A DNA stretch of 64,000 nt from Alphaproteobacteria bacterium (lineage in GTDB: Bacteria > Pseudomonadota > Alphaproteobacteria > SHVV01): assembly GCA_965261735.1 (NCBI GenBank), contig OZ253470.1:2048001-2112000 (forward strand). The letters are read 5' to 3'. Shown here piece by piece: positions 14,166 to 18,342 of the stretch (position 1 is its first letter; the number at the start of each line of letters is the position of its first letter). The notes beneath the pieces were generated by a model, which had not been told where the DNA came from, did no database searches, and worked only from the letters and a program-made list of their open reading frames with translations. The position numbers and the translations under genes were made by a program.

Positions 14166-14309
14166 CGGCTCGCCGGTTCGCGGGCCCCGAGTTTAGCGGC
14201 CGCTGCGAGCGCGGGAAAGCCGTTCGCGGTCTTGTCTCGCCCCGGCGATTGCGACAAGCTCCAGCCTCATCGGCCGATGATGGCGGCCGATCTCCTGCGG
14301 AGGATCACC

Positions 14310-15074
14310 CTGACCCTGCGACTCTACGCCATGACGTGCGGCTGGCTGACCCTGCCGAGGTGGACCTTTCTCGTTGGGGCCGAGGGTACGCTGCACGTTC
14401 CGGTCCCGTCCTACCTGATCGATCATCCCAAGGGGAAGCTGCTGTTCGACAGCGGCCTCCACCTCGCCACCCAGACCGATTCGGTTGGCTACCTCGGTAC
14501 TACCCGCTCGAAGCGCCTGGCGATCGAGTTCAAGGCCGGCGACGAGCTCGCCGCGCGCCTCGAGACGATGGAGGTCGACGTCCGCGATATCCGTTATCTC
14601 GTCAACTCGCATCTCCACTTCGACCATGTCGGCGGTAACGCCCAGATTCCGAACGCGGCGCTGGTGATCCAACGGCTCGAGTGGCAGGCCGGGCGCGACC
14701 CCGACTTGATTGCCGCCATGGGCTACCAGCCGTCGGACTATGACCTCGGGCACGACGTGATCGAGGTTGTGGGCGAGCACGACGTGTTCGGCGATGGCAC
14801 CGTGGTGTGCCTGCCGACGCCCGGCCATACGCCCGGCCATCAGTCGTTGCGCGTCAGACTTGACGGCGGCGAGGTCGTATTGGCCGGCGATGCCTGCTAC
14901 CTGCGCGAATCACTTCGCGACCTGCATCTGCCGAGCTTTCTACACGACGAGGCGCGGTTGCTCGCCTCGCTGCGGCTCCTGCGCGAGTTCGCGGCGCGGG
15001 GGGCGCGTATCTTCTACGGCCACGATCCGCGGTTTTGGCAGGGTGTGCCGCAGGCGCCGGCGGCGGTCGTCTAG
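14310..15074 (+). CDS. N-acyl homoserine lactonase family (AiiA/AttM-like) MBL hydrolase
   Basis: SHLHFDH, TPGHTPGH, GDACY, YGHD; best RBS (GGAGGA) precedes CTG at 14310, with alternative ATGs at 14277/14280. Confidence 0.8.
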   Translation: MTLRLYAMTCGWLTLPRWTFLVGAEGTLHVPVPSYLIDHPKGKLLFDSGLHLATQTDSVGYLGTTRSKRLAIEFKAGDELAARLETMEVDVRDIRYLVNSHLHFDHVGGNAQIPNAALVIQRLEWQAGRDPDLIAAMGYQPSDYDLGHDVIEVVGEHDVFGDGTVVCLPTPGHTPGHQSLRVRLDGGEVVLAGDACYLRESLRDLHLPSFLHDEARLLASLRLLREFAARGARIFYGHDPRFWQGVPQAPAAVV

Positions 15075-15508
15075 GCTCCGGGCGCGGGCGCGGGAGCTGA
15101 GCGCTTCTTGCGGCCGCGGCCCGTTTCGGTGCCGAGGCCCATCGAGCGCGCCAGTTCCGAGCGGCGTTTCGCGTAGCTCGGGGCGACCATCGGGTAATCG
15201 GACGCCAGCTTCCAGCGTGCGCGGTACTGATCGAGGCTCAGCTGGTGCGCGGCCCACAGGTGGCGCTTCAGCGCCTTGAGGCGTTTGCCGCACTGCAGGC
15301 AAATGACGGCGTGCGGCGTGATCGAGCGCGCGAGCGCGACCGCCGGCCTGCCGTCCACGGCCGCGGTACCGCCAAGATCGAGTGAGGACAGGGTTTGATG
15401 GACTTCGCGCAGCAGGTGCGGCACACGGTCGGCTGCCAGTGTGTTCCGGCCGGCGTAGGAAACGACGATTTCCGCGGTCATATCGAGCAATTGTCGGTCG
15501 ATGCGCAT
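15071..15508 (-). CDS. mucR: MucR/Ros family nucleoid-associated regulator
   Basis: TAEIVVSY N-domain; CLQCGK..LKRHL..H zinc finger; YRARW, DYPMVAPSY..RSELA. Confidence 0.92.
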   Translation of the reverse strand: MRIDRQLLDMTAEIVVSYAGRNTLAADRVPHLLREVHQTLSSLDLGGTAAVDGRPAVALARSITPHAVICLQCGKRLKALKRHLWAAHQLSLDQYRARWKLASDYPMVAPSYAKRRSELARSMGLGTETGRGRKKRSAPAPAPGA

Positions 15509-15630
15509 GACGAAGCCATCGCTGTATCCGCGCGCGGAGTTCGCACGATGCCAGAGTAGGGGTGCAGATCCGGTTAAGCAGTAGCGTCCGTCACAGCCCG
15601 CGTCCGGGCCCTAGCGCGAGCCGCACGGCG

Positions 15631-15906
15631 TCAGCTGACGCGCGAAGCCAACAGGAAGAACAAGCCGACCAGGAACATGCCGCCGCCCAGGAATGTCGCC
15701 AATGCGGCGACATAGAATCCGATGTCGCTGGTCGGCAAGCGCGGCGGAGGTGGGTCTTGCCGGTCCGCGCGCTCGAGCTCGCGCAGCGCCCGATGAACCT
15801 CCTTAAGGAGCTGGGGCAGGCGGTCGGGATCGAACGTGTTGTTGGCCGCGTAGGACATGACGATTTCTGTGGTCCGCTCGAGAAGGCTTCTCTTGTGGTC
15901 GCTCAC
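15631..15906 (-). CDS. MucR N-terminal domain fused to a C-terminal TM helix (no zinc finger)
   Basis: RSLLERTTEIVMSYAANNTFDPDRLPQLLKEVHRALREL aligns 22/39 by hand with the neighbouring MucR, then PPPP and a hydrophobic tail; start GTG 15906 or 15948. Confidence 0.7.
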   Translation of the reverse strand: MSDHKRSLLERTTEIVMSYAANNTFDPDRLPQLLKEVHRALRELERADRQDPPPPRLPTSDIGFYVAALATFLGGGMFLVGLFFLLASRVS

Positions 15907-16068
15907 GACGCGGTCCGGAGGCGAGCGACGAGCCTCATCGGCCGCCACGGCCGCCGGCGAGCTGACTTCCGTACGATAGGAGGGTGGGGCCCGCGCGTTG
16001 GAGGCGCAGTAGCGTCGGTCACAGGTGAGATGACTCGCCGCGCCGACACGGGCGTCACTAGCTGCGGC

Positions 16069-17082
16069 TTAGGGGCAGCCTTGCGGGCTCCCGCCCGGTC
16101 CGGCCGCCGGCGCGATGTTGGAAAGCTCGCCAATGGCGGCCATCAGATGGAACTCCTGCGCCTCGCTGCGGATCGCCGCGATTTCGCTCTCCGAGAGGCT
16201 CCTCGTGAGAATGTCGAGGAAGTGCTCCGCATTCGCCGCGTCCTGTGACTTGGCGATCTCGAACCAGTAGTACGATTTACGGTAGTCGCGGGAGACACCT
16301 TCGCCAAGATGTACATGCGCCCGAGGAAGACCTGAGCCCTCGCGTGACCGTTCTTCGCTGCGATCTCGAAATGGCGCGCCGCCTGGTCGAGGCTCTTGCC
16401 GACGCCGTGTCCACGATAGTAGAGGCGCCCGAGATCGAACTCGGCATCGCTCAGTCCCGCCGCTGCGGCGCTCGCGAACAACTCGGCGGCGCGACCAAAA
16501 TCCTTCGGCACGCCGGCGCCGAAATAAAACAGATAGCCAAGGTCGCGCCTGGCGCGGCTATCTCCTTGGCGCGCCGCCTTGTCGAAGAGCGCCGCCGCTC
16601 GGGTCGGGTCGGCGGCGCTCCCCTTGCCGTCGCGGTACAGGACCGCGAGCTTGCGCTGAGCCTCGGTGTTGCCCCGGTCGGCGGCCTTGAGATACCACAT
16701 GAGTGCGCGCTCGTAGTCCTGCGCGATCCCGTTGCCCTTGGCGTAGTAGTCGCCGGCCCGCAGTTGTGCCGCCGGATGCCCCTGCTGTGCCGCCCGGATG
16801 AACCAGGCGAACGCCTCGGTCGCCGACTCCTGAACGCAATGTCCGCCCTCGTACAGGCGCCCGAGCCAGAATTGGGCGTCGGGCTCACCGGCCTCGGCCG
16901 CCGGTTTGAACTCGAGGTACGCCGCGCGATAGTCCCCCGCCTCGAAGGCAGCTTGGCCGGTCCCGATATCGGACGCGTCAGCCCCGGCTGCACCGAGCCA
17001 AGCGAGCGCAAGCGAGCGCAAGCGCGGAAACCAGCACGGCGGCGGCGTGGCGCAGGCTCCGGGCGCGCGGATTCGCGGACAA
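16069..17082 (-). pseudogene. Sel1-repeat (SLR) exported protein with two frameshifts
   Basis: repeated A..G...AQ..LG..Y..G.G units; a 10-bp tandem duplication at 17001-17020 disconnects the leader (TTG 17082); a 1-bp loss near 16305 disconnects GEGVSRDYRKSYYWF...*. Confidence 0.75.
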
Positions 17083-17371
17083 CCGACCCCCTATCGGCAG
17101 AGCCGATTGCTCGCACCCTGGACGCCGTGTTGACACGTATTCGCCCGCCCTCACCGGGTTGTTGCCTGCCCTACCAAAAGCAATTTCTAGGCAAATATCA
17201 CACCGTTTCCGATTGTTGTATTATTTCATATGGTTAATCGATCTCAGAGAAGGCCGCTATGAAAAAGTGTAAAGTTTGCCGACATTCTGGTTAGAGGCGC
17301 GTGCTGCCGTAAGGGACGGGTGGCCCTACGATTCCCGCGGTATTCTCGCGGCATCGCGGGCACAGGCCGGA

Positions 17372-17398
17372 GTGTAAAGAGCCTTTACACCTTTACAC
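17372..17398. promoter_or_regulatory. palindromic operator-like site GTGTAAAG-N3-CTTTACAC with a duplicated half-site
   Basis: perfect 8-bp inverted repeat plus a tandem CTTTACAC copy; another GTGTAAAG at 17267. Confidence 0.45.
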
Positions 17399-17437
17399 GC
17401 GGGCCCGGCTTACGCGACAACGATCCGGTGAGATTAC

Positions 17438-17675
17438 GTGGCCGCACCCACCTATTCCACCATCGATCGGCGCATCGACGGACGCATCGCGCGGGTCACG
17501 ATCGCCAACCCGGCCGAGCTCAACACCCTGCGACGCCGCTCACCCGCCGCCCTCGATAGGGTCGCGCATGAGTTCGGCGCCGATCCCGAGCTACGCGCCT
17601 AGGTTCTTGCCGGCGCCGCGAGCACGCCTTCATCGGCGGCGCCGACGTGCGCGAGATGGCGAAACTCTCGGCGCG
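17438..17675 (+). pseudogene. enoyl-CoA hydratase/isomerase N-terminal remnant
   Basis: DGRIARVTIANPAELNTL then, after disruptions, AFIGGADVREMA (crotonase oxyanion motif); no continuous ORF. Confidence 0.7.
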
Positions 17676-17848
17676 AACCGGAGTCCTATCGCGGCGACGA
17701 GCCCCATCGGCTGATGACCGCCGTCCCGGCCCGGCGGCGCCGAAAACGCACGCGTAGCGGTTGAATGACCGGTTCCAAACAGAGGCTTTCTTGGCTACAG
17801 TGTCGCGCATGAGCCCGGGCCAGCCGGGGCACGAGGGAGGGGACAATC

Positions 17849-18342
17849 ATGACGCAGGATATCAAGCAGGCGGTAACGTTCGACGCCAAGCCGGTCGTCA
17901 TCTTCGAGACGCTGATGGACACGAAGAAGCACGCCGCCTTCAGTGGCGCGCCGGCCAAGATCGACCGCAAGGTCGGCGGCAGCTTCACCTGCTACGGCGG
18001 CTACGGCGGCTACATCAACGGGGTCAACATCGAGGTCGTCAAGAACAAGTCCATCATACAGGCTTGGCGCGCCAAGAACTGGCCCAAGGGCGCATAGTCC
18101 GTGATCAACTACAAGCTGGCATCGGCCAAGGGTGGCAAGACCAAGCTCAGTTTCTCGCGCATGTCGGCGTACCCGACAAACAAGCGCCTCATATCGCCGA
18201 GGGGTGGAAGAAGTCGTACTGGGATCCGATCAAGGCGATGATCAAGGCGAGTGCGGCCAAGCCCAAGAAGAAGGCGCCCGCAAAGGCGCGCAAGAGCCCG
18301 GCCCGCAAAACCAAGGCAAAGGCGAGAGCCAGGGCCGCTTAG
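17849..18342 (+). pseudogene. SRPBCC/AHSA1-like protein with Lys/Ala-rich tail, disrupted
   Basis: VGGSFT..GYING..IIQAWRAKNWP; TAG at 18095; frame switch near 18155 to HVGVP..GWKKSYWDP; AKPKKKAPAKARK tail. Confidence 0.8.

Follow-up and report, generated by a model that had tools for sequence, protein, structure and literature searches.

Does the small open reading frame beside mucR in this alphaproteobacterial chromosome, here called ORF A, encode a partner of the silencer MucR with a membrane anchor in place of a DNA-binding domain? An earlier note on the window (the whole stretch of 64,000 nucleotides that was analysed) had described an ORF of about 91 amino acids directly upstream of mucR on the same strand, and we confirmed both its position and its anatomy (Table 1). 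The neighbour that the note had called mucR is a full mucR paralogue, mucR2, but it is not the main mucR of the genome. The canonical gene (MucR1) is distant from the locus, at G000:C1:814634-814999. Of the seven other genomes in the family, six contain a single mucR match, and only G000 contains three.

Table 1. Features of the ORF A locus, in window coordinates.
Feature	Position	Strand	Details
Lactonase-like gene	14277-15074		neighbour of ORF A and mucR2
mucR2, 145 aa, a divergent MucR paralogue of full length that has a Cys2His2-type finger	15071-15508	-	PF05443 along the whole protein, E 2.6e-40
19-nt motif copy before mucR2	15578-15596	-	69 nt ahead of ATG 15508
ORF A	stop at 15631; 91 aa from GTG 15906 (15631-15906); 105 aa from GTG 15948	-	PF05443, E 2.7e-7
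Hydrophobic segment of 26 residues (I62-A87), predicted to form one tail-anchor helix	15646-15723	-
Proline-rich linker, residues 50-61	15724-15759	-	loose alignment to the MucR interdomain linker
MucR oligomerisation domain, residues 3-49	15760-15900	-	PF05443 positions 2-47; AlphaFold2 helices
19-nt motif copy before ORF A	16006-16024	-	99 nt ahead of GTG 15906
Sel1-repeat gene, upstream of ORF A	16069-17021	-	Pfam Sel1, E 3.6e-39

In this assembly the reading frame of the Sel1-repeat gene is broken by a frameshift near 16310; an extra base is present near that position in two other sequencing runs, and in one run 195 nt of the repeats are skipped. The interval 17150-17420 is locally AT-rich (58% at 17201-17300). 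Two sigma-70-like sites in divergent orientation lie there, as does an inverted repeat with arms at 17260-17274 and 17383-17397, and the interval could serve the Sel1-ORF A-mucR2 run as a MucR-bound promoter. Within 17438-18342 on the plus strand, an AHSA1 gene has been shortened to 82 aa, covering profile positions 1-74 of 125, and the interval also holds a short gene remnant that may be the start of an enoyl-CoA hydratase gene. The segment 19677-22366, approximately 4 kb from the locus, resembles what is presumably a pspF-pspA-pspB-pspC envelope-stress cluster. A second copy of the lactonase-like gene, 58% identical to the one in Table 1, is found at G000:C1:922175-922909.

ORF A combines a MucR oligomerisation domain with a predicted tail anchor

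ORF A matches PF05443 with 31.1 bits against a cut-off of 25.4, over profile positions 2-47 only. The earlier description of a zinc finger replaced by a proline linker and a hydrophobic stretch holds, and searches for a zinc-finger or zinc-free DNA-binding domain gave no match past the linker, either in frame or in the other frames. The reported identity to the neighbour, 22 of 39 residues, became 22 of 40 with mucR2 when aligned by BLASTP, and the hydrophobic stretch, put at about 25 residues, is present but measures 26. Its best 19-residue Kyte-Doolittle mean (KD19) is 2.18, while windows across the N-terminal domain are all at or below 0.06. The segment is followed by four residues and then the stop codon. 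By Kyte-Doolittle analysis and AlphaFold2, ORF A has the layout of a tail-anchored protein: its one hydrophobic helix lies at the very C-terminus, and the N-terminus has no hydrophobic segment. AlphaFold2 places helices at residues 3-22, 27-49 and 62-89, with a mean pLDDT of 70 and a pTM of 0.36; the tail helix itself is predicted with low confidence, at a pLDDT of about 60. The tail would insert in the inner membrane and leave the N-terminal domain in the cytoplasm.

Codon usage is coding-like in both parts of the protein, with log-odds per codon of 0.36 in the N-terminal domain and 0.34 in the tail. The tail both reads as coding and has the hydropathy and predicted fold of a transmembrane (TM) helix. 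The 14-codon extension before GTG 15906 has a log-odds of -0.12. The negative value makes the 91-aa form likely and the 105-aa form less likely, judged by codon usage, and the exact 91-aa product is found in a protein collection from NCBI and ENA. Pfam, solved structures and the ESM Atlas revealed no further functional domain within the 91 residues, and searches of solved structures with ORF A, by sequence and by fold, gave no significant match.

Residues for MucR self-association are mostly retained

Self-association of Sinorhizobium fredii MucR1 is reported, from mutagenesis, to need isoleucine, valine or leucine at positions 20, 21, 25, 30, 35, 39, 42 and 46, as well as tyrosine or histidine at position 24 and fixed spacers, and glycine or asparagine at position 25 abolishes it (PMC9410896). 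Position 38 was taken as a further key position from PMC11662661. At S. fredii positions 20, 21, 24, 25, 30, 35, 38, 39, 42 and 46, ORF A has I, V, Y, A, F, L, L, L, V and L. Every spacer is retained, as are Y24 and six of the eight branched-chain residues (I20, V21, L35, L39, V42 and L46); ORF A departs from the family at position 25, with alanine, and at position 30, with phenylalanine. The alanine (V25A) is common to ORF A and mucR2 and is otherwise seen in just 2 of 236 further MucR rows; the phenylalanine (V30F) occurs in none of the 236. Conserved residues do not guarantee oligomers, since MucR2 of S. meliloti is described as a monomer though its residues are mostly conserved (PMC13297338). 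An N-terminal extension blocks oligomerisation of the same protein according to that source, and given this effect the choice of the 91-aa start may bear on whether ORF A oligomerises.

ORF A and mucR2 descend from one local duplication

The 19-nt motif ahead of each gene and the rare V25A, both common to ORF A and mucR2, show that the two genes are products of one local duplication. The motif copies are identical at 18 of 19 positions and are the sole two matches in the 5.03-Mb genome even when three mismatches are allowed. The non-coding regions before the two genes align better than expected, with only 3 of 1000 shuffles aligning as well. In a tree of 55 N-terminal domains ORF A and mucR2 are sisters (support 88/82, from a short alignment), and the ORF A branch is long (1.51 versus 0.53). 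Third codon positions of the pair match at 18 of 40 codons, and identity to canonical MucR1 is 16/40 for ORF A and 13/40 for mucR2. The chance of the motif being conserved to this degree is 3e-4 at a synonymous identity of 0.43, or 0.1 if the background identity is set to 0.6. This conservation points to a working cis element, and the motif is likely a conserved promoter or operator element. It may resemble the boxes of the Crp/Fnr family. It is not enriched in seven family genomes (one match versus two control matches), and no sigma-70-like site was found ahead of ORF A or mucR2.

The earlier note had recognised that the tail could prove to be an out-of-frame MucR remnant or a fragment of an unrelated gene. 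We found no MucR remnant in any frame. The tail was rejected as a relic of the MucR DNA-binding domain, as there is no alignment past the linker and DNA similarity to mucR2 stops in the N-terminal domain; when the tail was compared with MucR, its score was equalled by 7 of 300 shuffled tails, and the margin was due to the linker. Neither this genome nor five family genomes contained a significant match to a donor gene, and an ESM Atlas search with ORF A residues 46-91 returned no match.

The only hint of a donor is the 3' end of the Sel1 gene, where a stretch at about 16025-16135 is weakly colinear, in another frame, with the ORF A tail at about 15597-15705. A 9-mer is common to 15696-15704 and 16127-16135, the colinearity being measured back from the 19-nt motif. 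In a narrow band, 15 5-mers are shared versus a control mean of 3.8 (3 of 600 controls); the banded word tests were equalled by 3, 9 and 3 of 600 controls and the longest-word tests by 16, 11 and 19 of 600, these tests having been chosen after the alignment was seen. Gapped tests were mostly not significant (22-511 of 1000 over 15 settings, 279 of 3000 and 81 of 500). Because of the post-hoc choice and the gapped results we regard the colinearity as a hint only. It is as would be expected from a tandem duplication of a unit comprising the upstream gene's 3' end, the promoter and the mucR N-terminus, and the tail was possibly recruited from another frame of the Sel1 gene and later selected into a TM helix.

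Whatever its source, the tail does not look like chance read-through. When long genes of this genome were sampled, a window with a KD19 of at least 2.0 occurred in 466 of 12,000 samples read in frame, in 70 of 36,000 read in antisense and in 1 of 24,000 read with a frameshift, and it is the rarity among frameshifted read-throughs that argues against such an origin.

The architecture is confined to one species in the searches made

Homologues with the same N-terminal domain and TM architecture, which the earlier note had proposed to look for, were not found beyond this species in any search. A word-based protein search gave one match among 54 candidates, ORF A's own 90% cluster of nine members. 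HMMER against 1.84 billion representatives gave four matches. One is this cluster, two are N-terminal fragments with nothing further, and the fourth, P0134, was set aside as a repeat artefact. A search with the N-terminal profile limited to proteins of 22-109 aa returned 358 matches; among the best 120 of these, none of the 119 outside the cluster reached a KD19 of 1.6 (maximum 1.57). When 401 genomes from the class were searched, matches at E ≤3e-4 turned up in 107, and outside ORF A itself no match extended past residue 62 of 91. The PF05443 scan of the same number of genomes gave 464 matches, of which the best 150 are listed; the total counts in the unpublished genome G045, on which none of our conclusions depends. 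Searches for close relatives of ORF A in metagenome, genome and viral contigs produced two chance matches and nothing further: L018 and L028 match the linker in unrelated frames and were rejected. A plasmid search gave one annotated MucR only. Divergent relatives may have escaped these searches.

Three side observations came from these searches. A weak lead in the ESM Atlas (score 0.75) is a 164-member cluster of proteins of about 60 aa, 71% of them with PF05443, which represents either contig-end fragments or a MucR family consisting of the N-terminal domain only. P0137, a 95-aa JGI protein, shares 77% identity with mucR2 over the C-terminal part of the latter and is the sole close relative outside the species. 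In the mucR match at L005 (G033:C1:904776-907913), the DNA-binding domain is interrupted by an in-frame stop.

The earlier note had named no described example of this architecture, and our literature search, which covered papers other than those under subscription, agrees in that it turned up no description of a MucR derivative carrying a membrane anchor. The word 'transmembrane' is absent from two reviews of the family, one of them PMC7710501.

ORF A bears signs of past selection in an eroding genome

The dN/dS check raised by the earlier note was computed against mucR2, and the value of 0.36 (dN 0.39 and dS 1.09 over 40 codons) indicates purifying selection since the split. ORF A scores 52.1 bits and mucR2 56.3 bits against the N-terminal profile. 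Canonical domains were also left to decay neutrally: at 0.5 changes per site, none of 900 runs still had ORF A's score and no stop codon, against 6 of 900 at 0.3 and 84 of 900 at 0.2. By the dN/dS value and the simulations, ORF A has been under selection for much of its history, and neutral drift during the last 0.2 changes per site would be compatible with the simulations.

The stretch is present in 20 public runs from 10 studies, 19 of them with at least half of its words. Our view of strain polymorphism rests on three other runs that were compared and on the nine-member protein cluster. In all nine cluster members the frame is open to the same stop, and among the differences listed for the three runs there are no indels in ORF A and no difference in the upstream 19-nt motif. 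Both of the listed differences within the 91-aa ORF are non-synonymous. The tail variants F64L, G74V and L85V are hydrophobic in all three cases, and A20E in one strain (P0005) places a charge at core position 25. In run X16 (compare protein P0012), a 22-nt deletion at 15450 puts mucR2 out of frame within its N-terminal domain, and ORF A is open there.

Gene loss is under way in this genome. In a comparison based on 400 kb from relative G002, breaks were found in 23 of 195 orthologue-like genes (0.149 events per kb; 7 of the 23 breaks are at one repeated place). At this rate a 273-nt ORF would be open 96% of the time, and the openness of ORF A therefore carries no weight. This undoes the earlier argument from a clean ORF unlike its broken neighbours; the adjacent lactonase-like gene, an aldolase-like gene and mucR2 likewise have open reading frames. 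In one RNA run (X20) no contig covers ORF A, which, as contigs, cannot prove that a transcript is absent, and one exact 184-nt contig lies at 16106-16289 in the Sel1 gene.

A possible membrane-tethered antagonist of MucR

Rings of 9-14 MucR protomers, most often 10 or 12, assemble through the N-terminal domain (PMC11662661), and the interaction of S. fredii MucR1 with MucR2 is reported to run through the same domain (PMC9410896). In Caulobacter, a C-terminally truncated MucR1 co-purifies with MucR2, is trans-dominant on it and strips it from a promoter (PMC4083442). With these precedents, the reading that we tentatively favour, at close to even chances, is that ORF A is a tail-anchored, H-NST-like antagonist of MucR, a membrane-tethered poison subunit. 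Its N-terminal domain would join oligomers of MucR2, canonical MucR1 or both, and each ORF A subunit would take the place of a subunit that binds DNA. The MucR ring would be drawn toward the membrane, DNA bridging would be reduced, and the silencing of AT-rich genes would be relieved while the shared upstream element is active. The canonical MucR encoded elsewhere in the genome may be a more likely target than the neighbour mucR2 alone. Transfer of the Caulobacter precedent is weakened by the limited predictive value of conserved residues noted above and by the DNA-binding-dead MucR2 of S. fredii, for which no observable function is reported (PMC7710501). Of the membrane-anchored partner that the earlier note proposed, the mostly kept oligomerisation residues and the TM-like tail have stood; homologues elsewhere and evidence of expression have not been forthcoming.

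The best surviving alternative, which we hold to be doubtful, is that ORF A is a decaying relic, a chimeric gene that was once selected and is now dispensable and drifting in an eroding genome. The charge introduced by A20E, the exclusively non-synonymous differences listed, the broken mucR2 of one strain, the frameshifted Sel1 gene, the 23 broken orthologue-like genes, the lack of RNA cover in the contigs of one run and the simulated compatibility with recent neutrality all fit this account. Against it are the frame kept to the same stop in nine of nine cluster members, the hydrophobicity retained by the tail variants and an upstream motif with no listed difference, in numbers too small to decide.

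It is unlikely that mixed rings still hold AT-rich DNA and that ORF A anchors the MucR-bound chromosome at the membrane with silencing kept. In rings of 9-14 protomers a minority subunit need not abolish binding, as may be reasoned from the ring sizes in PMC11662661, and in Mycobacterium the nucleoid protein Rv3852 does carry a TM helix at its C-terminus (PMC8233713). However, the truncated subunit in Caulobacter took its partner off the promoter (PMC4083442), and Rv3852 is itself nucleoid-associated (PMC8233713), whereas ORF A has no DNA-binding domain. The ring structure, the cross-reaction between paralogues and the effect of the Caulobacter truncation lead us to favour the antagonist over a tether.

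Unlikelier still is a reuse of the domain, in which ORF A would oligomerise with itself or pair with MucR2 only, making a small ring in the membrane that has no part in global silencing, or would hand MucR to a membrane protease. V25A and V30F separate the domain from canonical MucR and could shift its choice of partner, and the long branch suggests a changed role, but the 91 residues hold no other functional domain, and adjacency and the shared upstream motif link ORF A to mucR2. Finally, a broken mucR duplicate whose hydrophobic tail came from frameshift read-through or assembly error can hardly be the explanation: truncated or frameshifted MucR fragments are common in databases (the 358 short matches) and the tail is perhaps colinear with the Sel1 3' end in another frame, but the tail codons, the read-through sampling and the decay simulations largely refute it, and the same ORF is present in independent runs, no MucR remnant lies in any frame and none of the 119 other short matches among the best 120 has such a tail.

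Comparison with known systems

The closest functional likeness is to H-NST of the E. coli serU and IE3 islands, which, like ORF A, combines the oligomerisation domain of a xenogeneic silencer with the lack of a DNA-binding domain (PMC7074111). H-NST antagonises H-NS through hetero-oligomers, and its island also encodes a full-length homologue, Hfp/H-NSB (PMC7074111). It belongs to another protein family, is conserved and island-borne, and has no membrane anchor in the description given there (PMC7074111); in contrast, ORF A is chromosomal, is found in a single species and has a predicted TM tail. ORF A shows no H-NS homology, only PF05443 passing in Pfam, and it is not conserved across species as H-NST-type genes are, being limited to its own 90% cluster. 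ORF A could therefore work like H-NST, but it is no member of the H-NS family.

Within the MucR family, the Caulobacter MucR1::Tn5 product is C-terminally truncated, binds its paralogue and is trans-dominant but, unlike ORF A, is a laboratory mutant without a membrane tail (PMC4083442). S. fredii MucR2 is a natural paralogue that has an intact N-terminal domain, does not bind DNA and interacts with MucR1; it differs from ORF A in owing this state to a frameshift at residue 114 and in having no TM tail (PMC9410896, PMC7710501). The N-terminal domain of the Ros/MucR family (PF05443), with two predicted helices, is homologous to that of ORF A, whereas in ORF A a hydrophobic helix after the linker stands in place of the DNA-binding domain, the absence of which means that ORF A is not a full member of the family. 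Rv3852 of M. tuberculosis is nucleoid-related and anchored by a C-terminal TM helix (PMC8233713). Unlike ORF A, it is unrelated in sequence, nucleoid-associated itself, positions Wag31 and is no silencer fragment (PMC8233713).

ORF A is a once-selected chimeric gene, specific to one species in the searches made, and belongs with the truncated silencers in an architecture that we have not found described. It is also quite possible, if with the chances somewhat against it, that ORF A is a natural chromosomal partner that uses the ring-forming domain of MucR itself to attach this silencer to the inner membrane, as an anti-silencer or a nucleoid tether, and that arose as a tandem-duplication chimera. 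The reach of the finding is limited because the gene has been seen in one uncultured-looking species only and signs of decay are present. In a 2020 review, the table entries for truncated MucR derivatives and for partners not related to MucR read 'Unknown' (PMC7710501). If the proposal is true, a natural subunit without a finger and anchored in the membrane would be a new, location-based form of control over a bacterial silencer. ORF A would be a case of a young chimeric gene, and a ready reagent for asking whether mixed MucR rings drop their DNA or carry it to the envelope.
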